Positions 21,716 to 61,300 of a stretch of DNA of 64,000 bases are shown here, piece after piece; position 1 is the first letter of the stretch, and every line of letters begins with the position of its first letter. The DNA is from Corallococcus exiguus (GTDB lineage: Bacteria; Myxococcota; Myxococcia; Myxococcales; Myxococcaceae), in NCBI RefSeq assembly GCF_017302975.1, contig NZ_JAFIMT010000003.1. One strand, 5' to 3'. A program made the translations under genes and the position numbers. The notes under the pieces were generated by a model, which was not told the DNA's origin, ran no database searches, and saw nothing but the letters and a program-made list of their open reading frames with translations.

Positions 21716-21729
21716 CGCCGGTGCGCGGG

Positions 21730-42830: not shown

Positions 42831-42868
42831 CCACCAGCCACGGTCCTCGTCCGTCGAGTCGGGGCGGG

Positions 42869-43818: not shown

Positions 43819-45020
43819 CCTCGCCTCCTCCACAGCGAACGGCCGACCATCCGGCGCCGCAGTCGCTGTTCTGCTTGATGGAGCGCTTCGGCGTCTCTCG
43901 CCGTGAGGCGACGGCCGTTCACAAAGTAGGCCCGTGCGCTGGTTTCCATTGGGTGTTCCGGGGCTTCTTCCCACACGGGTTCTTCGTCCGAGACTTCGGG
44001 GCGTGGCGGTGCCTGGACTCGCGGCGGAGGAAGCAACGTCTTCACTTCGATGTGCACCGGGCCTGGTGCTGTGTGCCTCGTGGCCGGCGATGGGGAGCGG
44101 CTGGATTCGCCCCGTTCCTCCGATTGGGAAGGATGCGGAGTCAGTGACTCAGGTCTGTCGTGACGACGGAGCCCGAGTTCCTCCTGGAACGGGGGGGCCC
44201 TTCGTGTCTCCCGTGCCGGCAGTCGGTCCAGGGCTCGGGGTGTCCGGCTCCTCCGTAGCGATGCCCGTACAGGCGTCTCCGTTTGTTGCACTGGAGGAGC
44301 CTGTGGTGGCGCTTGGGTGGTGGCTCGCGCGACGCGATGGCGGCGTGTTGGGGACTCCGGGACCCGTGCGCTGATCCGTGGGGGTTCGGCGTTCCTCTCC
44401 ACGGCGGGTCTCGGCGCCCGGCTCCTTCGCGGACCTGGAGCCTTCACGCGTGCTTCGACGGTGAGAGGGACCTCAAGGGCCTTCTGGCTTTCAGGTTCGG
44501 GCCGGTCACCTCGTTGTGGAGGGATATCCCCGCCCTCGGTGCGAGGACGACGTGGTCGTGGCTCCGCGACCTCCGTCTGAAACTCCGGGGCTTTGGGGAC
44601 AACGGGGAGCGCGAGCGTTTGAGGCAGTCGCCCGTCTGGGCTTCGGGCCACGGGTTCGACCGGTGACCTTGGTTCCTGGAGCTGTGCCGACGTGCCGACA
44701 GGCCGGGGAACGCGACGGCGAATGGGGGCGATGGGTTCCGTCACGGTCGGGACTTCGACTCGCGCAGGAAGCACCGATGGAGTCACATCGCCAGGCTCCA
44801 TGAGCCCCATGGCCCTGGGGCCCGACGGGAGCGACGCGGTCTTCACCGCGCGGCCTGGCTCCCCTTCCCGCCTTCGCGCACCCGGCGTTGGGAGGGACGG
44901 TGGCAGCGGTGGATCCACCTTGAAGTCTCCGCGCTCTCCCCGCTCCAGGGGATGGAGCACCCGGTCCAGTTCCGCGAGCAGAGCGGCCACCGCGAAGAGG
45001 TCATCTCTGGCGTCGCTCAT
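43815..45020 (-). CDS. Pro/Arg/Glu-rich low-complexity protein (about 401 aa)
   Basis: Start MSDARDD at 45020, ATGA-coupled to the upstream stop 45017; long Pro-rich disordered region; short conserved-looking C-terminus (YFVNGRRLTARDAEAL). Confidence 0.5.
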   Translation of the reverse strand: MSDARDDLFAVAALLAELDRVLHPLERGERGDFKVDPPLPPSLPTPGARRREGEPGRAVKTASLPSGPRAMGLMEPGDVTPSVLPARVEVPTVTEPIAPIRRRVPRPVGTSAQLQEPRSPVEPVARSPDGRLPQTLALPVVPKAPEFQTEVAEPRPRRPRTEGGDIPPQRGDRPEPESQKALEVPLTVEARVKAPGPRRSRAPRPAVERNAEPPRISARVPESPTRRHRVARATTQAPPQAPPVQQTETPVRASLRRSRTPRALDRLPARETRRAPPFQEELGLRRHDRPESLTPHPSQSEERGESSRSPSPATRHTAPGPVHIEVKTLLPPPRVQAPPRPEVSDEEPVWEEAPEHPMETSARAYFVNGRRLTARDAEALHQAEQRLRRRMVGRSLWRRRG

Positions 45021-47179
45021 GTCGGCACTCCCAGCCAGGACTTGAGGACCGTGGTCGCGGCCCTCAGCTCCGGGTCCCTCAACACCGTCTTCGTTACGCC
45101 GCCGTCCTGCACCGTGAGGTTCGCCGTGCCTGAATCCAGCTCGATGGGGAGCATGACTCCCGTGGCGAGGCTCGGGCCTCCGAAGCCCTTGAAGTCGCGC
45201 CGCAGCGTCACGTCGCGCACCAGCGCCTTGGGCATCTGCAGGTCGCGCAGCGTGATGACCACGACCTCCTCGTCGTCCTCGCAGCACAGGGGCGTGGGCG
45301 TCGTTGTCACCTCGTCGTCCGCCCGGGCCGCCGCGCCTGTGCGCACGTCCACCGTGTCCACGGTGGCCACGCCCTGCCACCACGTTCCTTCGTCGTCCGC
45401 TCCACGCACGAGCAACAGCTCCCCCGGCCTTGCGACCTGCACCGGTTTGCTCGAGCCAGATGTGCTCGTCAGCGGGATGCCATCCAGGAACAGTCGCGTC
45501 GCGCCGACCTCCACCGGCGGCAGCAACTTGAACGTCTGGCCTGGATACGGCGCGGCCACCGATGCCGGCACCAGCCCCAGCGCGCCACCGCCCTGGCCCA
45601 GGATCAGGCTCAGCTTCGCGCCCAGGGCGATGATCTCCTGCACCACCCCGTCCGCCTGCGGACCCGCCGCCGCGTGCCCATCCATCAACTCCTGCGTGGA
45701 GATGGACACCGCGCTTCCACTCACGGGCGAGCCACTCCTCACCAGCCCGGCGACACCCGGCAGCTTCGCGTCCGTCGCGATGGACACATTCAGCGGTGCG
45801 ATTCGCAGGCGCTTCTCGGCTCCTTTCACCTCCCAGCCCAGCACCAGCGCCAGCGTGGGCCGGTCTCCTCCCACGTTCGCCACATGTCCCGGCTGCACCT
45901 GCCCCAGGTCCACCGTGGGCGTCACCGACAACGCCGTCGCCTGCGTGAGCGTGTCCTTCACCAGTGCCACCGGTCCCACCAGCGGGATTCCCGTGGACTG
46001 TCCAGCGAGCACTCGCGTCAGGCTGTCGCAGAATGGTTTCAGCACGAGCTTCAGTAGCGGTGCCAGCGCGGCCCGATTGCGTACATCGAACCAGCGCTGA
46101 CGGAACACCCAGTGGAAGCGCAGCGACCATTCCAATGTCCGGAGCATCCGCAGCGACCCGTCCGGATATGCCAGCCGCGACGCCACCGCCTCGTCCATTC
46201 CCTTCCCTCCCTCGATGTCCAACGTCGTCAGCTCGTTGGACAGCTGGCCGGGGATGCCCGGTGAATCCGCCCTCCTCAGCGTGGTCTTCAACGACGCCAG
46301 CCCTGTCACGGACGCAGTCACGGTGCGTGGCGGCTGGAGCGCCGTGGCCACCGCGCCGTAGTCCGTCGCCGACGCCTGAAGTGAATCCGCCGCGCGTTGG
46401 AGCGCATCCGTCAGCTCAGGGGCCGCGCCCTGCTCCTCCAACGTGGCCTTCGCCTGGAGCAGCACGTTCCGGTCCGACAGGCACTCGCCCTGGCGGGTTG
46501 AGGCCCCGGACGCCACCGGGTCGAAGGCGCTGGACGCCGACGAGACGCTCAGCCCATCCAGCACGCTGCTCAGGGACACCGTCTCCGATGTCGTCTTCAG
46601 CTCCGCCCGCCTCGTGGCGCGCAGGCCCGTCCAGGTCCCCAGCTCCGCGACGCCGCTCTCCGCCGCATCCTTCCGCTGGTCCGTGGTGAACAGCCCCGCG
46701 TCGATGGCGTCCTCGACGGTGCCGCTCGCCGACAGGGGCCCGAAGTCATACGTGGGCACCCGCACCGCCACTTCGCCGCCGTGCTTCTCGTCGCGGAAGG
46801 CGAACAGCGTCACCGTTCCCGCGAGCAATGCCGCACCCGTGAGCTTCCCGTCTCCATCCGCTCCGATGGTGCCCACCGCGAACTCCAGCTCCTCCACGCC
46901 CGGCAGCCGGCTCTCACTCCCCACGAGCGAACCGACGGACACATTCGGCAGTCCTTCTCCCCGAGGCGCGGCGGCCAGGGCTGGCGCGAGCGCGATGCCC
47001 ACCGCGCGACGACGGGCCCGCTCGATGACGTTGAACACGGGTAGGAGCGCGCATACCGTCTGGACCTGTGGCGCGTCCTGATCCGCCACGCCGTCCATGC
47101 GGTCCAGGAACGCCTCCAGCTGCTTCCAGGCCGCTGTCCAGCCATCCAGCTCCGCGCTCAGGCGTGTCACCGCGCTCAC
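45017..47179 (-). CDS. Hypothetical protein (720 aa), tail-like operon
   Basis: High GC3; ATGA coupling at both ends (47179/47176 and 45020/45017). Confidence 0.55.
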   Translation of the reverse strand: MSAVTRLSAELDGWTAAWKQLEAFLDRMDGVADQDAPQVQTVCALLPVFNVIERARRRAVGIALAPALAAAPRGEGLPNVSVGSLVGSESRLPGVEELEFAVGTIGADGDGKLTGAALLAGTVTLFAFRDEKHGGEVAVRVPTYDFGPLSASGTVEDAIDAGLFTTDQRKDAAESGVAELGTWTGLRATRRAELKTTSETVSLSSVLDGLSVSSASSAFDPVASGASTRQGECLSDRNVLLQAKATLEEQGAAPELTDALQRAADSLQASATDYGAVATALQPPRTVTASVTGLASLKTTLRRADSPGIPGQLSNELTTLDIEGGKGMDEAVASRLAYPDGSLRMLRTLEWSLRFHWVFRQRWFDVRNRAALAPLLKLVLKPFCDSLTRVLAGQSTGIPLVGPVALVKDTLTQATALSVTPTVDLGQVQPGHVANVGGDRPTLALVLGWEVKGAEKRLRIAPLNVSIATDAKLPGVAGLVRSGSPVSGSAVSISTQELMDGHAAAGPQADGVVQEIIALGAKLSLILGQGGGALGLVPASVAAPYPGQTFKLLPPVEVGATRLFLDGIPLTSTSGSSKPVQVARPGELLLVRGADDEGTWWQGVATVDTVDVRTGAAARADDEVTTTPTPLCCEDDEEVVVITLRDLQMPKALVRDVTLRRDFKGFGGPSLATGVMLPIELDSGTANLTVQDGGVTKTVLRDPELRAATTVLKSWLGVPT

Positions 47180-48786
47180 AGTCCGTTTCCCTTCTTCGGC
47201 GTGCCGGGTGGCGGAGTGGACGTGTCAGCCGCGGGGGGCTGCGGACCCGGCGGACGTTCGGACGCACCTGGACCTCCGAAGCCCATGGCCAGCGAGCGCC
47301 CTCCCCGGCGCTGGGCGTGCTTCGTGGACGCCATGCCCTCCAGGATCTCCTTCTGCTCCTCCACGTGCTCCTTCGACTGGTCCAGCACCTCCACCAGCGT
47401 GGAGCGGCTCCGCTCGGCGGCGGCCTTCAGTTCGTCCGGCGTGCGCCCCACCGCCTTCACGAACCTCTCGGGCGCCTTCTCCACCGCCTTCACGAACTTG
47501 TCGGCCTGCTTCTGGGCCGTTGTCTTCAGGTTGCCCCAGGCGTCCTTCACCTCGTCCCCACTCGCATCCAGCACCTGCGCGGCCTCGCTTTCCAGCAGGG
47601 CCTTCTTCACGTCCTGGAGCGTGAGGTCTCCCGATGCCAGCTCCATCGCGGCGGACAGGCCCAGCAGCTCCCAGAGCATCGCGGCCTTCGCCAGGTTGGG
47701 CCCCGCCGCCAGCAGGCAGATGCCTCCCACGTAGCCTCCCGGAGGCCGGTTCGTCGCCGTGAGGAAGGCCTGCTTCAGCCCCGCCACTCCTCCCGTCGTG
47801 GACACCGGCAGCGCGTACATGCCCGCGGACTTGAGCGCATTCAGCAGGTCGATGATGGCTTGCACCGCCTGCGCCAGCTTCATCAACACCTGCACCTTGT
47901 CCTGCATCGCGGCGGCGAGACTCCGGAGCAGCGTCGCCAGGTTGTCCACCGACAGGAGCAGCGCCCTCAGCGCCTCCGGGAGAATGAGCAGCTTCTCCAT
48001 GTCCGGGAACAGGTCGCGCATGCGCGCGGACTTCCAGTCCGGCTTCACCGATCGGCCTCGCGCCCGGCTGCGGCGTGGATCCAACGCGCCCTTCGGGTAC
48101 TTCTCGAACGCTTTCTTGAACGCGCTGATGTTGATCAGCTTTCCCAGCAGGTACAGCGCCTGCCGGAGCGCATCCAGCGAAGGCGCCGCCATCACGATGA
48201 ACACCGCCTGCACCGGCGCGCCGTCCGTCACCGTCGGGCGCGAGTCGTCCCCCGGATCATCGAAGGACGCGACGAACCGCCCCGCCCAGCGCGCGAAGCC
48301 GTCCGGCGTCACCGGCGGACGCTCCAGCGCGAAGCCCGCCTTGAAGTCCTTGGGGATGTTCGGGATGAAGCCCGTCTCCGCCAGGTTCGTCTCCGTGGGC
48401 CCGATGCCCGGCGCGTCCGCGTAGAGGTACGCGCCCGCGTTGAGCAGGTCGTTGATGATGTCCTTGAGCAGCTCATAGGCCGCGAGGATGAGCGCGCGGA
48501 ACGGATCCGGCAGCCCCAGGAGGATGGCCGCCAGCGCCTGGAGCAGCGCCTGCACGAACTGGAGCACCGCGATGATGATCTGCAGCGGCGGCTTGACGAT
48601 GCCCACCAGCTGCTCCAGCCCCGGCGGCACACCGATCAGCAGCGGACGCCACGCGGGCCCGGCCCCGGCGTCAGCGCCGGTGGCGTCCGTGCCTTCCGCA
48701 TCCTCCAATGCCTTCGCCAGGTCCTCGCAGCAGGCCTCCAGCGCGCCGTGGAGCTCAGCGATAGCGGCGTCGTTGAACTCGGCCAC
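47176..48786 (-). CDS. Hypothetical protein (536 aa) with hydrophobic helical segment
   Basis: Coding-like frame; hydrophobic stretch LQIIIAVLQFVQALLQALAAILLGL; Lys/Glu-rich C-terminus. Confidence 0.5.
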   Translation of the reverse strand: MAEFNDAAIAELHGALEACCEDLAKALEDAEGTDATGADAGAGPAWRPLLIGVPPGLEQLVGIVKPPLQIIIAVLQFVQALLQALAAILLGLPDPFRALILAAYELLKDIINDLLNAGAYLYADAPGIGPTETNLAETGFIPNIPKDFKAGFALERPPVTPDGFARWAGRFVASFDDPGDDSRPTVTDGAPVQAVFIVMAAPSLDALRQALYLLGKLINISAFKKAFEKYPKGALDPRRSRARGRSVKPDWKSARMRDLFPDMEKLLILPEALRALLLSVDNLATLLRSLAAAMQDKVQVLMKLAQAVQAIIDLLNALKSAGMYALPVSTTGGVAGLKQAFLTATNRPPGGYVGGICLLAAGPNLAKAAMLWELLGLSAAMELASGDLTLQDVKKALLESEAAQVLDASGDEVKDAWGNLKTTAQKQADKFVKAVEKAPERFVKAVGRTPDELKAAAERSRSTLVEVLDQSKEHVEEQKEILEGMASTKHAQRRGGRSLAMGFGGPGASERPPGPQPPAADTSTPPPGTPKKGNGL

Positions 48787-48949
48787 GCGCGTCCTCCCGG
48801 GTGCGTTGTTCCAGCTCCATCAGCTTCTCCAGCCGCTCGGCGTCCTGGGCCACGCCCACCGCCGCCGCCTGGAGCAGCAGGGCCTTCACCTCCTCCAGCC
48901 GCTCGCGCAGCACCGAGGCTTCCAGGGGCTTCCAGTCAGGAGCCTTCAT
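48755..48949 (-). CDS. Possible small protein (64 aa)
   Basis: Begins 4 nt after the spike gene stop; overlaps the next gene by 32 nt; may be spurious. Confidence 0.25.
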   Translation of the reverse strand: MKAPDWKPLEASVLRERLEEVKALLLQAAAVGVAQDAERLEKLMELEQRTREDARGRVQRRRYR

Positions 48950-48953: not shown

Positions 48954-50141
48954 TCACCCCACCGGCATGCGCTTGACGAAGCCGAAGTAGGACCAGTCCA
49001 GCATCGGCGTCATCGCCGCCCAGACATCCAGGAGCGGCCCGTACGCGGCCACCGTCATCGGGTTCACCGCCTTGAGGATCTGCGCCAGCATCGTGAAGTG
49101 GATGGCCAGCCCGTCCCCCAACACCATGGGCGAGATGGCGGTGAGGCCTCCCATCTGGCACACGCCCAGCATCGTGTTGATGGATACGTTGCCCGCCAGC
49201 GCGTCGATGGAGACAGCGTTGAGCGACGGGCCCGGCATGTCCGGCATCGCCGCGGCCACCTTCACCGCCTTGCCCGCCGCGAGGTTCACGTTGCCGCCGG
49301 ACGTGACGCCGTAGCCCCCCACCGCTGTCTCCTGCGACGCGCCGGAGACGATGCGCGTGTGGCTGCCCTGGATGCGGTCCTCGCGCGGGCCGCCGACGAT
49401 CTCCTTCAGGCCGCTGCCCCCCACCGTGCGCGAGTAGCCCGCTACGTCCACCTTCTCTGTCAGCGACCCCGTCACGTGCAGCGACACGTCCCCGCCCACG
49501 TCGCGGGTGTGGCTGCCGTCCACCGTCTCGTCCTGCGTGCCCGCCACCTCCAGGTGGTCGTCGCCGTCCACCTCCGCGGAGCGGTTGCCCTCGTTCACCG
49601 TGCGCTCGTTGCTGATGAGCCGGTCCAGCCCTTCCGCGGACAGGATGACGCGGTTGCCCTGCCGGTCGTGGATCTCCACGCGCGCGGTCTCCGGCCGGTC
49701 GTCCAGGACGATGTAGTGGCCCGTGGCGGACTTGAGCATCCGCACGCCCGGCACCGCGGACTGGGGCGGATAGTCGTGCTTGGGAATCTCGCTGACGTCC
49801 GGGGCCACTCGCGCGGTGGAGTCCGGTTGGCCCAGGTCCGCGAGCGAGGGCTGCCCCCACCACATGCCGCTCCAGATGGGTTGGGACAGGTCTCCGCCCT
49901 CGAACTCCACCCAGACGCCCGCGCCCACGTCCGGCACCACGAAGAGGCCTTGATCCGGTCCCGCGTAGGGCGTGCACGGCATGGCCCAGCCCGTGGCCAC
50001 GTCTCCCATCAGGCGCGGCACCACGCACTGGATGCGCCCCAGGTTGAGCGGGTCCGAGACGTTCGTCACGTAGCCCCGGTACTTGCCGAAGTAGCGGCTC
50101 TCCGTGCGTTCGATGAGCTGCTGCAGCAGTTGTTCGATCAT
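48954..50141 (-). CDS. Phage baseplate spike protein, gpV/VgrG-like (OB-fold N-terminus plus beta-helical C-terminal region)
   Basis: YRGYVTNVSDPLNLGRIQCVVPRLMGDVATGWAMPCTPYAGPDQGLFVVPDVGAGVWVEFEGGDLSQPIWSGMWW parallels the P2 gpV / gp5 N-terminal OB domain; downstream repeats (xTVxxG) resemble spike beta-helix repeats. Confidence 0.6.
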   Translation of the reverse strand: MIEQLLQQLIERTESRYFGKYRGYVTNVSDPLNLGRIQCVVPRLMGDVATGWAMPCTPYAGPDQGLFVVPDVGAGVWVEFEGGDLSQPIWSGMWWGQPSLADLGQPDSTARVAPDVSEIPKHDYPPQSAVPGVRMLKSATGHYIVLDDRPETARVEIHDRQGNRVILSAEGLDRLISNERTVNEGNRSAEVDGDDHLEVAGTQDETVDGSHTRDVGGDVSLHVTGSLTEKVDVAGYSRTVGGSGLKEIVGGPREDRIQGSHTRIVSGASQETAVGGYGVTSGGNVNLAAGKAVKVAAAMPDMPGPSLNAVSIDALAGNVSINTMLGVCQMGGLTAISPMVLGDGLAIHFTMLAQILKAVNPMTVAAYGPLLDVWAAMTPMLDWSYFGFVKRMPVG

Positions 50142-50350
50142 CGCGCGCTCCCCAGGTCGTCGTCCTCGTCGTACTGGCGCACGCCGGAGACGTCCGACAG
50201 GTTGATGTAGACGGGTGTGGCGCCATCCGGCCCGGTGAGGTGGACGACGTCGTCGATGAGCTCCACCACCAGGCCCACGTACACCTGGCCCAACGTGGTG
50301 AAGAGGTAGCAGCGCTGCCCCATGCTGGCTTCGAGCAGCTTGCGCATCAC
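50138..50350 (-). CDS. Small protein (70 aa), tail-like operon
   Basis: ATGA overlaps at both ends (50350/50347 and 50141/50138) support translation. Confidence 0.4.
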   Translation of the reverse strand: MMRKLLEASMGQRCYLFTTLGQVYVGLVVELIDDVVHLTGPDGATPVYINLSDVSGVRQYDEDDDLGSAR

Positions 50351-50691
50351 TCCTCCAGCTTCTGCACCAGCCGCGTGGCCAGCTTCACGCGCGTGTCCAC
50401 CCAGACGCCCACGTCGCGCTGACGCTCGGAGGCGAGCCTGCGGCGCGCGGCGCGAACCAGGTCCTGGAGCGTCACGGGCACCGTGGGCACCGGCGGCAGT
50501 CGGGAGATGCGCACGTCCAGCGCCCGGAGCACGGAGGTGTCCAGGTCCAGCTTCGCGCGCGTGCCGGCCAGGTTCTCCAGCGTCGCGGCCTTCGCGTCGG
50601 GCGCGTCCGGCGTGGCGGAGAGGGAGACCTCGGGCAGCGCCGTGCGCTGGAGGGCGACACGGCCACTGAGGGCGAAGGGGTCGGGCATGGG
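50347..50691 (-). CDS. Small protein (about 115 aa) immediately after the fibre-like gene; position analogous to a fibre-assembly chaperone
   Basis: Start MPDPFAL at 50691, 28 nt after the giant-gene stop 50720; the upstream ORF-track extension overlaps the giant gene. Confidence 0.4.
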   Translation of the reverse strand, partial: PMPDPFALSGRVALQRTALPEVSLSATPDAPDAKAATLENLAGTRAKLDLDTSVLRALDVRISRLPPVPTVPVTLQDLVRAARRRLASERQRDVGVWVDTRVKLATRLVQKLEE

Positions 50692-50719: not shown

Positions 50720-53700
50720 CTACGGGTTGAGCTCCACCACGGCGTCGGCTTCCTGGACGTGCACACCGGAGGTGGTCGCGTTGCCGACGGCCGCCACGCG
50801 CGAGCCGCCCAGGATGATGACGGAGTGGGCATACGGATCCGGCACCGGCTCCGGCGGGAGGGGCCGGATGCCCGCGTCCTGCACCGGGATGGGGCCGGTG
50901 GTGCCGCCCGTGTAGAACGAGTCCGCCAGCACCTCGTGCAGCACGGAGACGTTGAGGATGCTCTCCTTCACCGTGGACGCCGCCGAGTCGATGCCGAGCA
51001 CGCTCTTGTCCACCAACTGGAGGGCCTTCTTCGGGTCGCCATCCGCCGCGGTCAGCACGGAGCGCACCTGGCCCTGCACGTCCTCGGGCTTGTCCGCGTG
51101 CATCGCGACGCGGTCCACCAGGTCCCGCAGCGCGCTCGTGGGCGAGTCGTCCTTGGTCACCGCGATGCCATAGAGCGTCCGGGCCGCCATGCTCACGTCC
51201 ATGGTCGCGGGCAGCTTCGAGCGGACGTCCTGCATCGTGGTGTTGTCCAGCACGACCTTGGCGGGGATCTCCGCCCGGGCCTGGGGCGGGAGGGGCGTGG
51301 GTTGGAAGACGAGCTCCGCGAGCAGCGTGGAGAAGGCATCGCTCGCCACGTCGCGGCGGCGCTGGAGTCCGCCCAGGAGCAGCTCCTGGTCCAGGGGCAC
51401 GCCCAGCGTGGAGCCTCCGCCCACGGGTATCTGGAGCGTCAGCCTGTCCGAAGGCATCAGCCACTGGGGACGTACCACCGGCGGGGGCGGCGTCACCGTC
51501 TCCGCTCCCAGCACCACGTTGCCGGTGAAGGTCACCGGCGCTTTCTCCACGCGCAGGACGACGACGTTCACCGCGTCCAGGCACTGGCACCGGTTGCCGC
51601 TGAAGACGGTGGAGTCCGCGCGGCGCAGGTACACCGCGCCCACTCCGCCCTCGCTGCGCAGCTCGTTGCCGGACACGGCGGCGGAGATGACCGCGCCGCC
51701 GTTGCCCAGCAGGAGCAGCGCAGGGCCTCGCGCGGTGATGTCGTTGCCCTCCACCTGCACGCCCCGCTTCGCCTTCACCACCGGCTTCGGGAGGATGGGG
51801 ATGGGCCTGACGAGGAAGTCCACCAGCGCGGGCTGCACCAGCGCCGTCGTCCCCGTGAGGTAGCGCGAGGCCGCCGTGCTGGCGCTCAAGGTGGGTGCGA
51901 AGTCCGCGGCCGTCACCGCGAGCGCGCGGTTGAGCACCGGCCCCGTGGCGAACTTCTGCTTCAACGAACCCAGCTGCACCAGGTCCTCCACGCGAGGCAC
52001 CGACGCGAGCGTGGCGATGGAGGACGGCGAGGAATTGCCGGCGACCGTGCGGCCATCCGTGCCCGGTTTGGGCACCGGGTCCGTGGCGAGGAAGGGCACG
52101 CGCGACAGCTTCGCCACCAGGTCCACAGGCAGCGTGTCGGTGACGACGAGGACGCCCGCGCCTCCACCACCGCCGCCCGCGTGGCGCACGGTGTTGCCGC
52201 GCACCACCGTCTCGCCTCGCCAGTCGATGGCCACCTCGTGGAGCACCGCCTGCGGTAGCGAGTTGCCGCTCTCCAGGAAGACGTTGCCCTTCACCACCAG
52301 TTCGCCGGAGCCCACGAAGGAGGCCACCGCCTGGCCCAGGCCGGGCTCGCCCGCGGTGGGCAGGCCCGCGCATGCGAAGAGGTGGTTGTCGGAGACCACC
52401 GTCACGGACAGGTCCGGCCGCAGCCGCAAGCCCGACACCGCGCAGCCCTCCAGTCGGTTGCCGTCCACATCCAGCAGCGAGCCTGGATCCGTGGGCGCCT
52501 CCGTCAGCAGGTGCCCCGCCGCGCCCAGGGCGGTGATGCCGGTGACGGTGTCGCGCACGGTGTTGTCCGCCAGCCGCACGCGGCCCTGCACGCCGGACAC
52601 GAAGAGGCCGTCCGCGGGCAACGGGAAGGTGTCGAAGAGGGGGTCCACCAGGTCGCCGGGGTCCGGGGCCTCGCCGCGCGCCAGTTGCTCCAGCGACTTG
52701 CGCAGCATGTCCAGGATGGCGTCCAGTTCCTGCATGCCGGTGACGACGGCGACGAGCGACGCGGAGACCTTGTCGGAGCGCTGGCGCAGGTACTCCTGGA
52801 GCCGCGCGACTCGCGATGCGTCGTCCTCGGCGGGATCCAGGGCCTGCTCCACGGCGCGCAGCAGGACCGCGGCGGCGTCCAGCTCGGCCGTCACCGTGCT
52901 GGATTTGGCGACAGCCTCCGCGGCGGTGGTCGCGGGCTCGTCCACCAGGAGGTGCAGGGCCTGGCGCGAGGGCACGCCGCCGTTGCCGCTGGTGAGCGCG
53001 GTGATGGCGTCGCTCACTCGCTGGAGCGCCAGCGTGCGGAGCCTCCCCTGGATGCCCGCGATGTCGAGCACGCGGTCGTACTGGGAGAGGTAGAGCTGCA
53101 ACGAGCCGCTGAGCACCGGCCCTGGTGCCATGCCGCGCACGGCCAGCACCAGCGCGCCCAGGGCGGAGACCCAGCGCTCCAGCGGCTCCGCCTTCGGCGT
53201 CACGGGCGGTAGGGGCATGGGCAGCACGTCCAGCGTCTGCACACGGATGCGGTCCAGGAGACTCCGGGCGATGGCCACCTGCTCCAGGCGCTTCTGCGGC
53301 TGGGCGATGGCGTCGAGCACCGCCTGGTGCGCCTGCAACGAAAGCGCGGACAGCTCCGCGTCGCCGCTCACCAGTTCGCCCAGCTGCCCCACCGCGGTGC
53401 CGAAGGCGCGCAGCTGCTTCTCCACTGTGTCGTCGGATTCCGTGACGAGGCCCGCCGCCTGCCGGTCCAGGTTCGTGGCGTACAGGCCGATGGTGGCGGT
53501 GAGCCCCTGCGCCGCGATGCGCGTGCCGTCCTCCGGCGCGACGTCCGACGGGGGCAGCACGCCGGTGGTGAAGTCCAGCACCTGCTTGAGCGTGGCGCGC
53601 ATGCGGTCCACCACCGGCTGCATCTTGCCGCCGGTGCGCTCCACGTCGCGGTAGTCCGCCTCCACCTGCGAGGCCAACGCGGGGTGGAGCTCCTGGAGTT

Positions 53701-56700
53701 GATCGGTCAGGGCCTCCTTGGACAGGCGCAGCTGCACGAGAACGTCCGTGTTGGCCTTCGCGTCCCGGGTGCCTGGCTGGAGCGGCAGCTGTTGTAGCGC
53801 GGCCTGAGCGAAGGTCCCGATGATGGTCTTCTTGGGTCCCACCGCCTGGCCGATGACGGGCTGCCGCGCGCGCTGCGCCTGCGCCTCGCGCAGCTGGGCC
53901 ACCTGGCTCAGCGCCCCCGCCAGCGTGACGATCGCGGTCAGGTCACCCGGCCCGCCCTGCACCCGGGCCAGGGCCTTGAGGAGGAATTCCCCCGTGTCGG
54001 AGGGCAGGCCCTGCACCAGCGAGTCGAAGGCGCCCTTGATGCGGTCCGCCGTCGCCGCCACGGCGTCCTTGCCGGACACGGTGGCCAGGTCGAACTGCGC
54101 CACCATGTCCCACGCGTCCTGGGACACGGGGTCCGGCGCGGTGAAGCTGGAGGCGCGGCTCAGCGACGAGCGCACCGCGTGCGCGGTCTGGGTGTGGTCG
54201 TTGAAGCTCTGGGCGGCGCGCAGCTCCGCGATGTCGTTCTCCAGCGCGGAGAGAATGGAGTCGGGCACGGTCCCCAGGTCCTCCAGCTCCACCACCAGGG
54301 TGTCGAGCGGGCCGTACAGGCCCCGGCCAGCCTTCTGGCGTCCGTCCACGTTCGCGCCCGTGTACTGCAACACGATGGAGTACAGGCCCACCACGGCGCC
54401 GTGCACGTCCGCGCGCTCCGGGCGGACGGTGGAGCTCGTGACACTGAGTTGCTGGAGCACCACGGTGATGGGCGGCAGCTTCACCGGGCCCGTCACGGGC
54501 GGCGGCTGCGTCGTCGTCACCGGCGCGTGCACGCCGTCCACCTCGTTGCCCTCCACGGTGATGCCGGAGCCGGACACCACCGCGATGCCCGCCGCGCGCA
54601 CCTCCGCGTCCGGGAGTCCGGGCGCGCCGTAGGCCTGCGTACGCCCCACCTGGAGCAGCCGGTTGCCGCGCACCTGCGCCTCGTCCACGCCCGCGAGCAC
54701 CACCGCGCCCCGGAGCGTCAGCCGCTCCAGCCAGCGCAGCGCCGCGTCCAGGGGGGCGCGCACGCGGGTCGTGGCGTTGGCGAGCAGCGCCTCCACGAGC
54801 GGCCGGGGACGGGCCTTCGCGTCCGCGCTCAGCACGGCCTCCAGGCCCGGATCCAGGCGGGACAGCGCCAGCGTGTTGTCCTCCTGCGACGGCACGTCCG
54901 CGAGCGCCACCTGTTCGAAGCGGTTGTCCTCCACGCGCAGGCGTCCTACCGCGCCGCCCGTGCCCCAGGTGCGCACGGCCGAGTCCCCCAGCGCGCGCAC
55001 CACGTTGCCCCGGATGCGCACGTCGAACACCGGCTGCGGACCGCCCAGCAGGATGCCGAAGCCCGGCGTGGACTCGCCGTCGCCTTCGATGCGGTTGTCC
55101 ACCACCTCCACGTCCGAGGCGGGGCGGCCGTTGGACGCGCCGTCATCCAAGCCGTCGCCCACGACGATGCCGGCCACCACGCCCAGCACGGACGCGGCGG
55201 GCACGGCTGGCAGGGAGATCCAGGACTCGCGCACTCGCAGCGCCCGGCCCGCCAGCTGGATGCCTACCTGGAACAGGCTGTCCGACACGGCGTTGCGGAT
55301 CTCATTGCCCACGACGTCCACGCCGTCGCCCGCGACCTGGATGCCCACGGCCGCGGAGCCCAGAATCTGGTTCTCCGCCACCACCACGCGGTCCACCGGC
55401 CCCGCGAGTCCCCCTTCCGCCAGGTCCTGTACCAGGATGCCCACGTGGAAGCCCTGGATGCGGTTGCCGCGCACCTCCACGCCCGCCAGGCGCCCGTCCG
55501 CCACGTGGATGCCGGTGGTCGCGTCCCCCAGCGGCTGGAGCCGGTTGTTGGTGATGGCCAGCGCGTCCACGAAGAGGCCCGCGCGCGGGAAGGACGCGAG
55601 GAAGCGCTCCGCGAGATACGGGGCATACGGCGCCACCGCGATGCCTGTCGCCGCGCCGACGCGGTTCTCGTCGATGACGATGCGCTCGCAGGTGCCCGTC
55701 ACCAGCACGCCTGTCGCCTCGGAGCCGGCCTGGTTCGCCTGGATGTGGCAGCGGCGCAGCGTCACGCCGCTGGAGTCCGCCAGCGTCACCACGCCGTGCG
55801 GCAGCGCAGCCAGCGCGTCGAGCAGCGGCTTCGCTTCCGGCACGTCCTCCAGTGGCTGACCCGGGTGCTGGCGTTGCAGCTTGCGCAGCTGCACCAGCGT
55901 GGCCACCACGGAGCCCGCCGCGCGGCCCTGGCCCGGGACGATGGCCTTGATGCGGTCGACGACCACGTCCACGAAGTCGGCTTCGGCGGACGGGTGCTTC
56001 ACGTCGTCCTCCTCCAGCACCCGGTCGTCGTCCACCTCCACCAGCGGCACGAAGCGCTGGCCGTTCGACATGGCCACGCTCGTCTTCACCGCCTTCACCA
56101 CGGGCTGGAGGCCTCCGCCAATCACCACGTCCTCGAAGGGGGCCTCCACCAGCTTGAGGTCCTCGATGCGCACGTCTCCATCCAGGCCGCAGCGGTCCAC
56201 GAAGAAGGCACCGCCGGAGCCCTGGGTGCGCAGCTCGGTGGCTTCGCCGTCGCCCAGGAGGTGCACGGAGGAGAGGCCGCGCAGGAGCACGGGGTGCTCC
56301 AGCTTGTAGCGGCCGGCTCGCACGAAGATGGATCCGCCCTGCCCTCCCATCCGGTCCACCGCCGCCTGGAGCGCCTCGTCGCCGGTGATGCCTTCGAGCA
56401 GATCCTGGTCGACGTCGCCGAAGCTGCGCACGCCGTCGCCCACCACCACCGTGAAGACGCCTGGGCCGATGACGCGCTCGGAGAGCTCCACCAATCTGTC
56501 TCGCACCTGGGCGAGCGGCAGGTAGCGCGGGCGCAGGTCCTCGAAGATTCGCGTCTCACCGCCTGTCACTCGCGCCAGGGGCACGCAGTGGTGCACTGGA
56601 CCGTGCACGGGCGCGTCCGTGAGCTGCTCGACCTCCCCACGGGCCGCGCCGTCCGCCGCCCGCACTCGCACGGTGAAGGACCAGTATTCGGTCGCGCGCC

Positions 56701-58327
56701 CCTCCGTGTTGCCGAAGGCCAGCGTGATGCCGTCGTCGAAGCGGTAGCGCGTATTGGGCACCAGCAGGTCGCCGCCGTCCCACCTACGCACCACCGCGCC
56801 CTGATCCGGACTGAAGGCCCGGCCCAGCGTGCCTCCCACGGGGAGCGGCACGGGGTCCGTGGTGAGCACGGTGCTCGCGTCCGCCAGCTCCAGCCTGCCC
56901 GTGTCCGCCTGGACGCCTCGCAGCCTCCGCAGCACTGGCAGCGACGGGCCTTCGGGCTGGAGCCGGGTGACCCGGTCCTCGATGACGACGAGGTCTCCCG
57001 CGCGCAGCTTCGCGGCGCTCGCGGGGGAGACCTGGAGCGTCATCGCATCCGCCGCCGCGGGCGCGGTGAGTGGGAGCACCGTGGAGCCGTTGTCTCGCGA
57101 CCACAGCACCACCGGCTGCGCGCCGCCTCGGAAGAACTCCACGCGGAAGTGGAGGTTGTCGGAGCCCGTGTAGCCCTCTCCCGTGGAGGCGCTCTCCGTG
57201 GACAGGCAGCGGTCTCGGCAGGGGTCCAGCGGCTCCGGTGGGAAGCGGTCCGGCAGCGCGCCCTTCGGGATGTTGGTGGTGAGGCGTGCGCCGCTGGTGG
57301 GCGTGGGCAGGACCTCCGCGCCGGCGTCAGCCAGCCCCTGGAGCGCGCGCACCTGGGTGACGAGCCGCAGGCGCACGGTGGTGTCCTGGCCGTCCAGCGC
57401 GGGCTCCTCCAGGAACGCGTCGTCGTACTGGGTGGTGGTCTGCTCCCAGCAGTCGAGGAAGAAGAAGTGGTGCCGCGAGCCGTCCGTGGGCAGCGCCGCC
57501 AGCGGATCCGCCTCCGGAAGATCCGGCTGCACGGAGTAGCGCAGGTCCTGCTCCAGGAAGATGCGCACGCCGTCGAGCAGCATGCGGCCCGCGCCCGGCA
57601 GCGTCCCGTCACCACCCCTTATAATGATATCGGCCCCCAGCGCCGCGTCCTCCACTCGCAGCGCGGCCACCCACGTGCGGGCCACGGGCGGCAGGCCCAG
57701 CACGCCCCAGGAGCTCAGCTTCGTGGGGTCCACGCCCGCGAACGCGGCGACGGGGAAGCGCACGTCGTTCCAGCCCGTGGGCCGCTGCCCCAGACCGGCG
57801 GACAGGACCGCTTCGTTCCCTTCCGTGTCCGCGACGACCACTCGCAGGTCGATGAACTCATCATCGGTGAGCGGTCGTTCGAAGCGCAGGCCGATGACGA
57901 GCACGGAGGCGGTGAAGGTGGTGCTGTCCGAGCGCGGCACGGCCGTGAGGTCCAACGGCGCGGGCAGCGTGCGGCGCAGCGCGATGTGGCCCCGGCTGCG
58001 CACCACGAACGGCAGCGTCTCCGAGTCGTAGCGGTCCAGGCGCAGCTCGCGCGGGATGATGCGCTCGTCGTCCGCGGGCAGGCCCTGCCCCGTCCACCCG
58101 AGCACGTTGCGGATGGGATCCACCAGGTACGTGTCGACGATGCGGAAGCCGTCGTCGGGCGAGCCCTCGGCGACGTCGGCGGAGCGGCGGCGCGAGTCCA
58201 CGGTGCGCAGCCGCACCTCCTCGTTCCAGTCAGCGTCGAGGCTCATGCGCCCCATCTGCTGATAGACGCCGGAGAATCGCCGGGCTTCGTCGAAGCGGGA
58301 CCTGGAGGTGTACGCTTTCACGGTCAT
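50720..58327 (-). CDS. Giant fibre/tailspike-like protein (2,535 aa) with right-handed parallel beta-helix (PbH1) repeats
   Basis: Start MTVKAYTSRSRFDEARRF at 58327, ATGA-coupled to the upstream stop 58324. The ORF-track start at 59698 adds about 460 aa of Arg/Gly junk that overlaps the upstream gene. Motifs: DADWNEEV; many NxIxGNxVxxxGxxAV-type beta-helix repeats. Confidence 0.65.
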   Translation of the reverse strand: MTVKAYTSRSRFDEARRFSGVYQQMGRMSLDADWNEEVRLRTVDSRRRSADVAEGSPDDGFRIVDTYLVDPIRNVLGWTGQGLPADDERIIPRELRLDRYDSETLPFVVRSRGHIALRRTLPAPLDLTAVPRSDSTTFTASVLVIGLRFERPLTDDEFIDLRVVVADTEGNEAVLSAGLGQRPTGWNDVRFPVAAFAGVDPTKLSSWGVLGLPPVARTWVAALRVEDAALGADIIIRGGDGTLPGAGRMLLDGVRIFLEQDLRYSVQPDLPEADPLAALPTDGSRHHFFFLDCWEQTTTQYDDAFLEEPALDGQDTTVRLRLVTQVRALQGLADAGAEVLPTPTSGARLTTNIPKGALPDRFPPEPLDPCRDRCLSTESASTGEGYTGSDNLHFRVEFFRGGAQPVVLWSRDNGSTVLPLTAPAAADAMTLQVSPASAAKLRAGDLVVIEDRVTRLQPEGPSLPVLRRLRGVQADTGRLELADASTVLTTDPVPLPVGGTLGRAFSPDQGAVVRRWDGGDLLVPNTRYRFDDGITLAFGNTEGRATEYWSFTVRVRAADGAARGEVEQLTDAPVHGPVHHCVPLARVTGGETRIFEDLRPRYLPLAQVRDRLVELSERVIGPGVFTVVVGDGVRSFGDVDQDLLEGITGDEALQAAVDRMGGQGGSIFVRAGRYKLEHPVLLRGLSSVHLLGDGEATELRTQGSGGAFFVDRCGLDGDVRIEDLKLVEAPFEDVVIGGGLQPVVKAVKTSVAMSNGQRFVPLVEVDDDRVLEEDDVKHPSAEADFVDVVVDRIKAIVPGQGRAAGSVVATLVQLRKLQRQHPGQPLEDVPEAKPLLDALAALPHGVVTLADSSGVTLRRCHIQANQAGSEATGVLVTGTCERIVIDENRVGAATGIAVAPYAPYLAERFLASFPRAGLFVDALAITNNRLQPLGDATTGIHVADGRLAGVEVRGNRIQGFHVGILVQDLAEGGLAGPVDRVVVAENQILGSAAVGIQVAGDGVDVVGNEIRNAVSDSLFQVGIQLAGRALRVRESWISLPAVPAASVLGVVAGIVVGDGLDDGASNGRPASDVEVVDNRIEGDGESTPGFGILLGGPQPVFDVRIRGNVVRALGDSAVRTWGTGGAVGRLRVEDNRFEQVALADVPSQEDNTLALSRLDPGLEAVLSADAKARPRPLVEALLANATTRVRAPLDAALRWLERLTLRGAVVLAGVDEAQVRGNRLLQVGRTQAYGAPGLPDAEVRAAGIAVVSGSGITVEGNEVDGVHAPVTTTQPPPVTGPVKLPPITVVLQQLSVTSSTVRPERADVHGAVVGLYSIVLQYTGANVDGRQKAGRGLYGPLDTLVVELEDLGTVPDSILSALENDIAELRAAQSFNDHTQTAHAVRSSLSRASSFTAPDPVSQDAWDMVAQFDLATVSGKDAVAATADRIKGAFDSLVQGLPSDTGEFLLKALARVQGGPGDLTAIVTLAGALSQVAQLREAQAQRARQPVIGQAVGPKKTIIGTFAQAALQQLPLQPGTRDAKANTDVLVQLRLSKEALTDQLQELHPALASQVEADYRDVERTGGKMQPVVDRMRATLKQVLDFTTGVLPPSDVAPEDGTRIAAQGLTATIGLYATNLDRQAAGLVTESDDTVEKQLRAFGTAVGQLGELVSGDAELSALSLQAHQAVLDAIAQPQKRLEQVAIARSLLDRIRVQTLDVLPMPLPPVTPKAEPLERWVSALGALVLAVRGMAPGPVLSGSLQLYLSQYDRVLDIAGIQGRLRTLALQRVSDAITALTSGNGGVPSRQALHLLVDEPATTAAEAVAKSSTVTAELDAAAVLLRAVEQALDPAEDDASRVARLQEYLRQRSDKVSASLVAVVTGMQELDAILDMLRKSLEQLARGEAPDPGDLVDPLFDTFPLPADGLFVSGVQGRVRLADNTVRDTVTGITALGAAGHLLTEAPTDPGSLLDVDGNRLEGCAVSGLRLRPDLSVTVVSDNHLFACAGLPTAGEPGLGQAVASFVGSGELVVKGNVFLESGNSLPQAVLHEVAIDWRGETVVRGNTVRHAGGGGGGAGVLVVTDTLPVDLVAKLSRVPFLATDPVPKPGTDGRTVAGNSSPSSIATLASVPRVEDLVQLGSLKQKFATGPVLNRALAVTAADFAPTLSASTAASRYLTGTTALVQPALVDFLVRPIPILPKPVVKAKRGVQVEGNDITARGPALLLLGNGGAVISAAVSGNELRSEGGVGAVYLRRADSTVFSGNRCQCLDAVNVVVLRVEKAPVTFTGNVVLGAETVTPPPPVVRPQWLMPSDRLTLQIPVGGGSTLGVPLDQELLLGGLQRRRDVASDAFSTLLAELVFQPTPLPPQARAEIPAKVVLDNTTMQDVRSKLPATMDVSMAARTLYGIAVTKDDSPTSALRDLVDRVAMHADKPEDVQGQVRSVLTAADGDPKKALQLVDKSVLGIDSAASTVKESILNVSVLHEVLADSFYTGGTTGPIPVQDAGIRPLPPEPVPDPYAHSVIILGGSRVAAVGNATTSGVHVQEADAVVELNP

Positions 58328-61300
58328 GGTCGGCTCATCCGAACGAGGTCGTCCTGGCTGCGGTCGGCGTGGAAGGGCGTGATGCCAATGGGCATGCTGT
58401 CGTCGGTGCGCGCGGAGAGTTCGCGCTCGTGGTCGGAGCGCTCGTCGTGGGCACCGGGGACTCCGCCGCGCTCGGAGGCGTGGAGCGCTTCGGGTCCGTT
58501 GTTGTCGCCCAGGACGAGGTAGCCCGGGTCCGTCTGGCGGTTCGACTGGAAGGACACGGTGTGCACCCGCGACTGGTGCGACACCGGAGGCTGTCCGCCA
58601 CGCGCGAAGAGGCTGTAGCGCAGCCAGCCCAGGTCCGGCCGGTCCGTGCGCACCTCGCCCGCGAAGGCGCAGGAGGAGGCCTCCAGCACGCCCGCTTCCG
58701 TGGCGCCCAGCACCGTGCAGTGCCGCAGTCGCACGGTCGCGCCCGCGGCTCGGATGGCGACGGCGTCGCGGTCTCCGGCGTCGAAGGTGCAGCCCGCGGC
58801 GATGAGGTGCACCCAGGGCGGCAGTTCGATGACGCCCACCATGCAGCCGTAGAGGCGCAGCTCCACGTCGGCGGGAGGCAGCGAACGCCGCGCGCTGATG
58901 TCCTGGTGCCCACCGCCCGGCATCCACAGGCCCACCTGTCCAGGCGCGCCCAGGTTGCACCAGCGCAGGTCCGCCTGCCCCCGAGCGAGCACCAGGTCCA
59001 GCCGTCCCGCGAGCCACAGGCCCGCGAGCCACACGCGCGTGGCCGCGCTGCCTCCGAAGCCCGGGTAGAGCGCCAGCGAAAGGCCGTGCTCGTCCGCGCC
59101 GATGCAGGGCGCCGCGCCCGTGTCCGCGGCGAAGAGGGACAGCCCGTTGTCCAGGCCCTGCGACAGACGCTCCGGAGCCAGCCGCGGCGAACCGATGAGG
59201 CCCAGCACCGGAGGCGCTCCGGATGGGCTTCCTTCCGCGACGTTCACGATGTCCGGCGGTGCATGGCCTCCAGTCACGAGCACCGCCGGCGCGCCGGTTG
59301 CGACGATGGGTCGCGCCTGGCCTCCAGCCGTCAGCACCGGAGATGCTCCGAACAGGAGTCCATCCGCGACGGTGGCGACGATGGGCCGCTCCTGGCCTCC
59401 GGCCGCCAGCACTCCGCCCGCGCGCTCCGGAGAGATCCACGCGGTGACAGGAAGGCCGGTGCCGGAGCGGTCGCCAGGACGGTCCGGCGGATCGATGAAC
59501 GGGAAGTCCGGCTCCGCCCACGCGGCGGGCGGACGGCGGTCCGGCGGAAGCAGCCCCGCTCCCAATGAGGCGCCCCGCCCTACCCGCGCGGAGACGGTGA
59601 CGCGGCCCACGGGAGCGTCGTCCTGGAGCACGACGCGGCCCAGGCGGGGATCCACCGCGACGATGCCGGCGGCGATGCTCGGAGCGAGCGTCGTCCACGG
59701 GCCCAGGCTTCGCTGGCGCAGCTGGAACGGGTGGCGACTCAGCCGTCCGGGCACCGAGTAGCGCCGCGCGCCGCCGGCCACGGAAGCATCCCGCGAGTGG
59801 TACGCGCCACCGGGCCGGGAATCGAGCGGGAGCGGCTGGCCCTCGCGAGGCTCGATGAAGGCGGCGCCGTCGTTGGCGACGTTGAAGCGCAGGAGCTCAT
59901 CCGGGAGCAGGGCCAACTCTGGCAGGAAGGCCAGGTAGCCGCGCCCGCCCAGTGAGAAGACGACCTCCGACGCGGGCAGCGGCGCCGGATCCGTGAGGAG
60001 CACGCGCCCATCGACGTACAGCGCTTCGCCCGGAACCGGAGGGTTCGTGCCCGAGGTCTCCAGCGGTCCGGCGACCCATGCATCCTCGCCTGCCTTCAGC
60101 GTCATCCGTTGAGGACGCGTCGTGTCCGCCCAGACGAGCGCCTCCACGCCGTCGGCGGTGATGGTCGCAACGAGCGTGCCGGGCAGGTTCGCGGCGATGG
60201 GCAGTGGGGCCAGGGGGCGCCAGACAGGGCTCGCGGAGGCCGGGTCACAGAGCATTACCGGCACGGCCAGTTCTCCCGTCACGGCCTCTCCGCCCAGGAG
60301 CATCAGTCCTTGCGCCGTGCTCAGCAGCGTCGCGGCCTTGCGCTCCTGGCGGTTGCGCACCGCATGGGGCCGCCACGGTCCGCCCGTGACCGACAGCGAC
60401 CAGAGGTCTCCGGTGGGCGCACCGCCCAGGTCACCGCCGAAGACGAAGACCCGGCCGCCACGCACGCACAGGCTGGGAGCCAGTCGCGCCGAGGGCTGCC
60501 GTGGGCTCGCGGTGTCCAACCGCGTCCCCGTCGGAGTCGCGGTGTCCAGACCCGTCACCGACCACACGCCCAGCTTCCCCGTGCCGTCCGGTGCCACCAG
60601 CAACAGCGAGTCACCAGCGATGGCCAGGGACATGCCTGGACCGTCTGGAGGCAACGCGCCGATGAGTTCCGCCACCTGCCAGGGCGCACCGTCAGCGCTC
60701 GCGTCGAAGCGGGCAAGGCGCAGGCTGCCGTCCGCGAGGTGTTGCTCGATGCGAGCGACCCACGGAGCACCGGCCAGGTCCACGCGGATGGCGTTGCTGC
60801 GAGGAGTCCCCTGGCGCAGACCCACGGTGAGGGTGCGCCACGTGCCGTCCACATCGCGCAGGCGCGGATCACCGCGCACCCGTTCAACGAGCAACGCCGC
60901 CGTGGTGCCCCCCAGGAGCTGGTTCGCTTCCGGCGTGACGGTGACGGTGTTCAGTGCATCCGACACCAGTTCGGTGGACAGGAGCACCGTGTCCGAGTTC
61001 TCACGCGCGGCCAGCAGCGTCAGTCGCCAGGTGTCTCCGGGCGAAGGCCTGCCCCGGTCCGCGAAGCGAAGCGTGGGGGCGGGCCCCACGGGCGCGGTGG
61101 GCAGCGGTCCACGCAGGAGCGGCAGGGCTTCCGGTCCCACCAGCGGAATGCCGTCGACGGAGACAGTGATGGCATCCGCGCGTTCAGCAGCGTTGGCGTC
61201 CTCGGCCAGCGAGGTAGGGGTCAGCAGCATCGCCGCCGTGCGTCCCGTGACGAGCGACGGAGGCGCGGGCTCATGGCGAGCGGTGAGGCCTCCAGTGAGG

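Follow-up and report, generated by a model that had tools for sequence, protein, structure and literature searches.

Extracellular contractile injection systems (eCIS) carry tail fibres that are held by one of five baseplate-anchor domains located at the N-terminus, and the domain DUF6519 has been named eBAP5 among these (Nachmias et al., Nat Commun 2026, PMC12923769). The eBAP5 class comprises 658 genes, which are typically encoded after a Tail_P2_I gene. Its signature is a beta-barrel or beta-sandwich insertion, and its members often carry C-terminal pectin-lyase beta-helices. Tail_P2_I resembles TssG from type VI secretion systems (T6SS), eBAP3 resembles TssK, and eBAP5 is partly similar to eBAP3/4 (PMC12923769). 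An example described as a "mega pectin lyase" has a length of 1,079 amino acids (aa), and the examples in the supplementary files range from ~480 to 1,100 aa (PMC12923769). Here we describe a gene of more than twice that size from Corallococcus exiguus. It lies at positions 50720 to 58327, on the minus strand, of a stretch of 64,000 nucleotides (nt), hereafter the window, taken from contig NZ_JAFIMT010000003.1 of assembly GCF_017302975.1. What the gene encodes is probably a peripheral appendage, similar to a fibre or tailspike, of a chromosomal, phage-tail-derived injection system of the eCIS type. Its product of 2,535 aa, the giant protein, is an oversized and unusually conserved variant of the catalogued eBAP5/DUF6519 fibres of eCIS, and it belongs to a lineage of contractile injection systems (CIS) with an inflated baseplate.

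The giant protein shares with the eBAP5 class an N-terminal DUF6519 anchor with a beta-sandwich insertion, a gene position directly after Tail_P2_I in an eCIS-type locus, and a pectin-lyase beta-helix following the anchor. It differs in length, because members of the giant family have 2,400-2,800 aa whereas canonical DUF6519 proteins have 422-1,835 aa; the size had been called exceptional in an initial annotation made from the letters of the window, and the comparison bears this out. It also differs by an additional 1,200 aa (an array of 24 helices, a second beta-helix and an inserted helical domain) that are seen in no other family, and by being collinear across four phyla instead of diversifying rapidly. 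The fibre class as such is already known; it does not explain the C-terminal half, which is specific to the family, or the lack of diversification. A form of about 2.5 thousand aa is not discussed in PMC12923769, which together with its preprint is the only study of DUF6519 found in the literature, and no studied CIS with a giant protein was found there for Corallococcus, Myxococcus or Micromonospora. For C. coralloides DSM 2259 the published catalogue does list a single eBAP5 gene (gene 2512828244 of cluster 244), in which DUF6519 covers residues 1-156 and fold domains occupy 88-249 and 352-450 (PMC12923769). This entry is very probably COCOR_03275, the orthologue of the giant gene, an identification based on the gene-number offset and the domain coordinates and not on a sequence match.

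The giant gene is an unbroken open reading frame (ORF) from an ATG at 58327 to a stop at 50720-50722, and its product begins with MTVKAYTSR. The ATG and the TGA stop of the 1,256-aa gene upstream have four nucleotides (ATGA) in common, ccgaccATGAccgtg. Both the start and the overlap had been given correctly in the initial annotation, and the interruption of the frame that it named as a possible refutation was looked for: the frame runs uninterrupted from 58327 to 50720. A mechanically called ORF reaches further, to a GTG at 59698, and the extra stretch overlaps the upstream gene in a different frame. As judged from the alignments, the true start is the ATG at 58327, because the N-terminus aligns to that of the homologues (consensus M-KAYTSRxRFDE) and because the same 4-nt ATGA overlap is kept in three of four other loci (L001, L035 and L036).

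Long chance ORFs are common in DNA of 70% G+C. A chance frame or a decayed pseudogene would be in keeping with the frequency of spurious long ORFs in this DNA, for example the antisense ORF of 1,447 aa at 54179..58522 (+) inside the giant gene, which fails the criterion of G+C content at third codon positions (GC3) and is a high-GC artefact. For the giant gene this explanation can practically be dismissed. The frame has a GC3 of 0.88, and its homologues number 89 proteins of 1,675-2,836 aa, mostly 2,400-2,800 aa (E <= 1e-276); one of them is a C. exiguus protein with 98% identity that also has 2,535 aa. Against the C. coralloides DSM 2259 orthologue (COCOR_03275, locus L001) the ratio of nonsynonymous to synonymous substitution rates (dN/dS) is 0.26, and all 150-codon windows remain below 1, with a maximum of 0.64. 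The frame is real because of these values and homologues, some 90 of them collinear and of the same length; the confident AlphaFold2 models described below also refute a chance origin. The gene is intact and under purifying selection.

The N-terminal part is the baseplate anchor. Pfam recognizes DUF6519 (PF20129) at residues 7-53 with E 5.6e-9, at 35.5 bits against a cut-off of 22.4 bits. P0093, a canonical DUF6519 protein that served as the reference (its own Pfam E is 1.1e-48), aligns in BLASTP with residues 8-52 at 47% identity and with residues 246-559 at 31% identity (E 4e-18), by its residues 7-51 and 145-452. From these two blocks the domain would extend over about residues 1-600, with an extra insertion at ~60-245. 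The insertion is all-beta and sits where the P0093 alignment breaks, so that the beta-sandwich of the eBAP5 class is present. A conserved N-terminal anchor, the absence of which the initial annotation had listed as a reason to abandon its reading, is therefore found and it is eBAP5.

Two AlphaFold2 monomer models were made, one of residues 1-1200 with 45 diverse homologues (mean predicted local distance difference test score, pLDDT, 84.5) and one of residues 1336-2535 (pLDDT 80.9). Residues 1-55 have low pLDDT in the monomer model, which would fit a segment that folds upon assembly. The ~60-245 insertion is probably a jelly-roll beta-sandwich similar to carbohydrate-binding modules (CBM) of families 4, 11 and 22. 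The catalogued fold domain at 88-249 of the probable C. coralloides orthologue falls in the corresponding place. In Foldseek comparisons the jelly-rolls of CBM4 (CBM4-2), CBM11 and CBM22, together with the HFTV1 turret, match about 188 columns with TMt 0.55-0.58; we infer that these matches fall on residues 60-245, the alignments lacking query coordinates. The C-R-D-R-C motif of the DUF6519 core (residues 370-374, 57206..57220 on the minus strand) is at least 90% conserved across phyla and may be a disulfide or metal site.

The domain that follows is a right-handed parallel beta-helix (beta-helix 1). Pfam finds Beta_helix at residues 939-1125 (E 4.6e-12), and a local match to a PHROG tail spike has E 3.9e-6. 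It is interrupted by a disordered or helical insertion at ~730-840 and a helical one at ~1150-1200, and residues 1200-1295, outside the model, keep the beta-helix pattern in their sequence. Charged residues are conserved within it (D851, D944, D968, D1001, D1072, R1031, R1079 and R1119). With the N-terminal half as query, Foldseek against the PDB places GH87 alpha-1,3-glucanase at E 1.2e-6 and also returns Klebsiella phage capsule depolymerases, the adhesin PfbA, the Vibrio polysaccharide lyase RbmB, the tailspikes of Sf6, HK620 and P22, and alginate epimerases. Among viral models (BFVD) the same half has 101 matches with E <= 0.001, down to 4e-9, to phage pectate-lyase-superfamily proteins, tail spikes and depolymerases. 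The structural similarity to fibre and tailspike proteins that the initial annotation predicted is thus present, in the form of a pectate-lyase-type beta-helix resembling depolymerase tailspikes and glycanases. The models suggest that the giant protein may bind or cleave glycans.

The likeness to phage tailspikes (P22, Sf6, HK620, Klebsiella phage K64-1/P560) and to glycanases (GH87, RbmB, AlgE) is one of fold, a right-handed parallel beta-helix with a pectate-lyase-type cap. With the tailspikes it would also extend to the mode of attachment, in which a particle-binding domain at the N-terminus connects the protein to a tail-like machine. Identity in the structural alignments is, however, 7-13%, with no detectable sequence homology, and the giant protein combines in one chain two unrelated beta-helices with a large helical array between them and is part of a non-viral injection system. 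Neither the whole protein nor the family profile had a significant match among PDB sequences (weak matches to helical bundles and a pectin-lyase cap, E >= 0.015), the NCBIfam scan gave no family, and tblastn against 50,697 phage records gave no homologue.

The C-terminal half has a different character. When residues 1336-2535 were scanned exhaustively with HMMER against 1.84 billion cluster representatives, only 62 proteins were returned, and the C-terminal half is considered exclusive to the giant-protein family because all of them are members or fragments of the same family that match at the equivalent position. It begins with the array of 24 helices, the least conserved large region of the protein (20-30% identity), which is yet always present and collinear and has weak profile matches to apolipoprotein and designed bundles. 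Beta-helix 2 follows. An internal duplication of the two beta-helices was considered and rejected (BLASTP between them, E 0.25). The helical domain that interrupts beta-helix 2 close to its end is a candidate distal specificity region, and the conserved terminal strands after it appear to close the beta-helix. Taken together, the beta-helix modules (625-1295, 1906-2275 and 2503-2535) make up ~40% of the protein, the DUF6519 N-domain about 24% and the alpha-helical parts (1336-1884 and 2314-2472) about 28%. Beta-helix repeats had been said to dominate the body of the protein; they are present, and do not reach that share. Neither a signal peptide nor a membrane segment is found, the sole hydrophobic stretch being a core strand of a beta-helix. 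A membrane-anchored or secreted protein was rejected on these grounds, and their absence fits a particle component that is assembled in the cytoplasm.

The locus around the giant gene is compared in Table 1 and in orthologous loci. The window ends inside the gene of the second Baseplate_J-type protein (J2), and the sheath and tube are seen in orthologous loci only. In C. exercitus (locus L013) the genes upstream are, in order, those of a 652-aa protein of no assigned function, the sheath (Phage_sheath_1 and 1C), a gp19-type tube, a 291-aa protein, CIS_tube, a LysM/tail-X protein, a gpD-type hub, a 1,256-aa Baseplate_J (J1) with a repeat-rich N-extension, and J2. The operon order of sheath, tube, hub, two Baseplate_J, Tail_P2_I, giant gene, two small genes and gpV spike is the same in four phyla. 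It recurs with near-equal protein sizes in Cryptosporangium (Actinomycetota), in a Rhodospirillaceae metagenome-assembled genome (MAG) and in Mesorhizobium (Alphaproteobacteria), and large eCIS_core (DUF4157) proteins lie downstream in those three loci (L002, L035, L036). In a tblastn matrix of 34 loci, about 25 are strictly collinear over the block that begins with the 652-aa gene and ends with the giant gene; they span Myxococcota, Alphaproteobacteria, Chloroflexota (an Anaerolineae MAG) and Actinomycetota. In distant loci of actinobacteria the place behind Tail_P2_I is taken by shorter DUF6519 proteins (422-917 aa). No capsid, terminase, lysis, integration or T6SS membrane-complex (TssJLM) genes were recognised in the stretches examined. 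As read from its gene content, the locus is a chromosomal eCIS-type contractile injection system and not a P2-like prophage, because the CIS gene order is conserved, eCIS markers are present, no capsid, terminase or T6SS membrane genes were recognised in these stretches, and the giant protein has no homologue in the phage records searched.

The initial annotation had framed the gene differently. It read a P2-like arrangement in which the giant protein corresponds to the fibre gpH and the small protein encoded downstream to the gpG assembly chaperone. A fibre- or tailspike-like protein encoded directly after the gpI-type gene, and overlapping it, is indeed supported by the Tail_P2_I neighbour and the beta-helix fold. 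The resemblance to P2 gpH/gpG and to R-type pyocin fibres lies in the gene order (a fibre gene after the gpI gene, then a small gene), and it is this adjacency that would speak for a P2-like prophage or tailocin. Neither protein is homologous, however: the giant protein matches no fibre family in Pfam, NCBIfam or PHROG and has no homologue in phage genomes, and the 113-aa protein matches no chaperone and no other family in Pfam or PHROG. Its gene is succeeded by one for a 70-aa protein and then by the spike gene; two small genes ahead of a spike are an order not seen in P2. The hallmarks of eCIS (TIGR02243; CIS_tube in L013; eCIS_core in L002, L035 and L036) and the lack of recognised head, lysis or integration genes in the stretches examined point the same way. 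A P2-like fibre with its chaperone is very improbable. The earlier reading was right in kind and wrong in its frame, which is eCIS and not P2 phage, and in the beta-helix content, which it overstated.

How the giant protein evolves is a difficulty for a receptor-binding fibre. In a conservation profile of 71 homologues below 60% identity, calculated in 50-aa windows, all windows are occupied, which amounts to full-length collinearity. The N-domain has a mean identity of 51%, and the values for the other parts are 44% (beta-helix 1), 26% (helical array), 37% (beta-helix 2), 20% (residues 2301-2500) and 53% (last 35 aa). The sole markedly variable stretch, with indels, is the helical domain region 2300-2500. 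Among nine loci from outside the Myxococcaceae the N-domain (51%) is as conserved as the sheath (51%) and close to the tube (55%), and J1, J2 and Tail_P2_I are lower, at 41-43%. The divergence of the giant protein correlates with that of the tube (r 0.95) and of Tail_P2_I (r 0.92).

Several of these results weigh against an appendage that recognizes targets. The conservation pattern is that of a core part of the machine and not of a swapped receptor-binding module: the protein is collinear over its full length across phyla, unlike a fast-evolving receptor-binding protein, its N-domain is conserved like the tube, its divergence runs in step with the tube and Tail_P2_I, and no 150-codon window has a dN/dS above 1. 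Rapidly evolving, modular distal receptor-binding domains were not found in this collinear protein with its family-only C-terminal half, in which only 2300-2500 is variable. Direct recognition by the Pfam DUF6519 model is confined to residues 7-53. For the C-terminal 1,200 aa the PDB contains no significant structural counterpart: Foldseek gave no match with E <= 0.001, the best being vinculin/alpha-catenin bundles at E 0.02, with spectrin-type bundles likewise non-significant, and the role of this part is guesswork. On the other side, the most variable segment lies near the C-terminal end, which fits the distal specificity region expected of a fibre.

The main alternative reading of the same data is a structural or anchoring component of the baseplate that takes no part in target recognition, such as a TssK-like connector, a baseplate-enlarging cage or a tether to some structure of the cell that makes the system, in which case the conserved partners would be self components. 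The collinearity in four phyla, the divergence that matches the core machine, the absence of modular swapping with a C-terminal half confined to the giant-protein family, and the inflation of all neighbouring baseplate proteins are what such a part would display, and the published similarities of eBAP3 to TssK, of Tail_P2_I to TssG and in part of eBAP5 to eBAP3/4 also speak for it (PMC12923769). By analogy with TssK of T6SS, docking on the loops of a gpI/TssG-type wedge is proposed for a peripheral protein whose N-domain is shoulder-like (PMC12923769). TssK is, however, only ~450 aa and tied to a membrane complex, the TssJLM genes of which were not found in the stretches examined here. TssK is also absent from the profile matches to PDB sequences and from the top 50 Foldseek matches, both searches being dominated by the beta-helix. 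The giant protein has no membrane segment, genes for a T6SS membrane complex are seen neither in the window nor in the flanks, and the eCIS_core/DUF4157 markers suggest a released system of the eCIS type. The CBM-like module and the pectate-lyase helix are typical of surface recognition, and variation peaks near the distal end. A purely structural role is for these reasons quite unlikely. A related proposal is that the giant protein marks a horizontally spread "mega-baseplate" CIS lineage (two Baseplate_J, a Kelch Tail_P2_I and an appendage of 2.4-2.8 thousand aa) in which the protein at the fibre position has become a core part, its C-terminal half doing what ordinary fibres do not, be it mechanical sensing and triggering, self-anchoring or enzymatic drilling of a shared glycan, and not acting as a fast-evolving receptor binder. 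We regard this as unlikely, if slightly less so than a purely structural role.

Beta-helix 1 could alternatively be an active depolymerase, a glycoside hydrolase or lyase with the main job of cutting through capsule, exopolysaccharide (EPS) or cell-wall glucan. Its best structural matches are enzymes (GH87 alpha-1,3-glucanase, Klebsiella phage depolymerases, RbmB and alginate epimerases), the five aspartates D851, D944, D968, D1001 and D1072 and the arginines are at least 90% conserved across phyla, and the N-cap motif is of the pectate-lyase type. The identity to the matched enzymes is as low as stated above and the TM-scores are modest, non-catalytic beta-helix adhesins such as PfbA match equally well, and conserved Asn and Asp are also structural residues of beta-helices. 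Enzymatic cutting as the main function is possible but doubtful.

If the giant protein is the eCIS appendage that we favour, the overlapping codons would tie its translation to the synthesis of the Tail_P2_I wedge protein, its presumed docking partner. The DUF6519 domain, probably as a trimer, would dock on the loops of Tail_P2_I at the rim of the baseplate, as TssK does on TssG. The CBM-like module and beta-helix 1 could bind, and possibly cut, polysaccharide on the target surface. The 24-helix array would serve as an arm bearing beta-helix 2, whose inserted and highly variable helical domain (2314-2472) would probably make the distal contact. Engagement of the target would be relayed to the baseplate and lead to contraction of the sheath, which would drive the gpV spike and the cargo into the target.

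The particles of eCIS are being engineered as programmable devices for protein delivery, in which the fibre sets the target. The giant family is an extreme case, an appendage of 267 kDa whose layout is kept across four phyla. As a receptor binder, it should recognise a widely shared and conserved feature, for example a common glycan. If it is not one, a structural or mechanical part has come to occupy the fibre position in this lineage, and such loci would have to be read differently. For Corallococcus, a predatory myxobacterium, the system is a candidate weapon for contact with prey. The annotation moves from a P2-like fibre with its chaperone to an eCIS appendage of the eBAP5 class.

Table 1. 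The giant gene, the segments of its product and the neighbouring genes, in coordinates of the window
Feature	Coordinates	Strand	Description
Giant gene	50720..58327	-	2,535 codons and stop; 267 kDa; pI 5.0; no signal peptide or transmembrane segment
Residues 1-55	58163..58327	-	Most conserved N-terminal motif, RFDE..RF.GV..QMGR..LDADWNE, and helix 28-52; start of DUF6519/eBAP5 anchor
Residues ~60-245	57593..58150	-	All-beta insertion in DUF6519 domain; strands 67-227 in the model; gap relative to P0093
Residues 246-600	56528..57592	-	Beta-rich DUF6519 core; pLDDT about 90; conserved C370-R-D-R-C374
Residues 625-1295	54443..56455	-	Right-handed parallel beta-helix 1; pectate-lyase-type N-cap GDG...Q..V....GG.I....G.Y
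Residues 1336-1884	52676..54322	-	All-alpha chain of helical bundles, 24 helices; pLDDT about 90
Residues 1906-2275	51503..52612	-	Beta-helix 2; disordered insertion ~2085-2180
Residues 2314-2472	50912..51388	-	Helical domain, an insertion close to the end of beta-helix 2; highest variability in the family (12-25% identity, indels)
Residues 2503-2535	50723..50821	-	Conserved terminal beta-strands; 53% identity across phyla
Second Baseplate_J-type protein (J2)	62339..64000	-	C-terminal 549 aa, gene exceeds the window; TIGR02243 "putative baseplate assembly protein", E 8.4e-41
83-aa ORF	62091..62342	-	Bridges J2 and Tail_P2_I with overlapping start and stop; weakly conserved within Corallococcus
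Tail_P2_I (gpI/TssG-like) wedge protein	58324..62094	-	1,256 aa; Pfam E 3.7e-7; TIGR02242; Kelch repeats; stop overlaps start of giant gene
Conserved 113-aa protein	50347..50688	-	No family match; 37% identity to the Cryptosporangium copy
Conserved 70-aa protein	50138..50350	-	Weak DUF6897-like match
gpV/gp5-type spike	48954..50141	-	395 aa; Pfam Phage_base_V E 6.1e-24, Gp5_trimer_C
64-aa gene	48755..48949	-	Small gene beside the spike
536-aa helical protein	47176..48786	-	Possible tape measure; weak PHROG match, E 2.4e-4
Conserved 720-aa protein	45017..47179	-	No function assigned; last gene of the conserved block

Other features of the locus were noted. An exact-sequence look-up of the Tail_P2_I protein of the window found none on record. 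Scans of the 113-, 70-, 64- and 83-aa neighbours with Pfam and PHROGs gave nothing usable; the 113-, 70- and 64-aa genes flank the spike in all loci examined, and none could be assigned to a family. The spike gene (48954..50141, minus strand) follows the gene at the fibre position and is far from the gpD-type hub (L013 7532..8806), which lies upstream of Baseplate_J, a split that is conserved in four phyla. Inflated peripheral baseplate proteins characterize the lineage: J1 has 1,256-1,545 aa (L013 9263..13033), J2 about 820-846 aa (L013 13030..15570) and Tail_P2_I 1,213-1,284 aa. The repeat-rich N-extension of J1 is possibly beta-helical.

Two genes convergent with the CIS structural operon encode an AAA+ ATPase with a winged-helix N-domain (29158..31599, plus strand) and a protein of 2,692 aa (31631..39709, plus strand) with annexin repeats (E 4e-21) and a DUF6782 metallopeptidase-like C-terminal end. 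The pair is a candidate for an Afp15-like loader with a giant effector. Further away, positions 1..27645 hold two GT4 glycosyltransferases, a Wzz-like protein, WecG/TagA, a flippase, a phosphodiesterase-family protein, a sigma-54 response regulator (activator) and a Ser/Thr kinase with PD40 repeats, all of them outside the conserved CIS synteny. The neighbouring EPS locus had been taken in the initial annotation as a hint that the protein acts on polysaccharide. The EPS genes, at 1-24 kb, are absent from the synteny conserved in other phyla and are therefore uninformative on the target. Just past the 720-aa gene this strain and C. coralloides DSM 2259 seem to differ (41032..43974 compared with L001 24525..27614): a 410-aa gene follows in L001, and a plus-strand gene for a 504-aa FGE-sulfatase/HEAT protein in the window.

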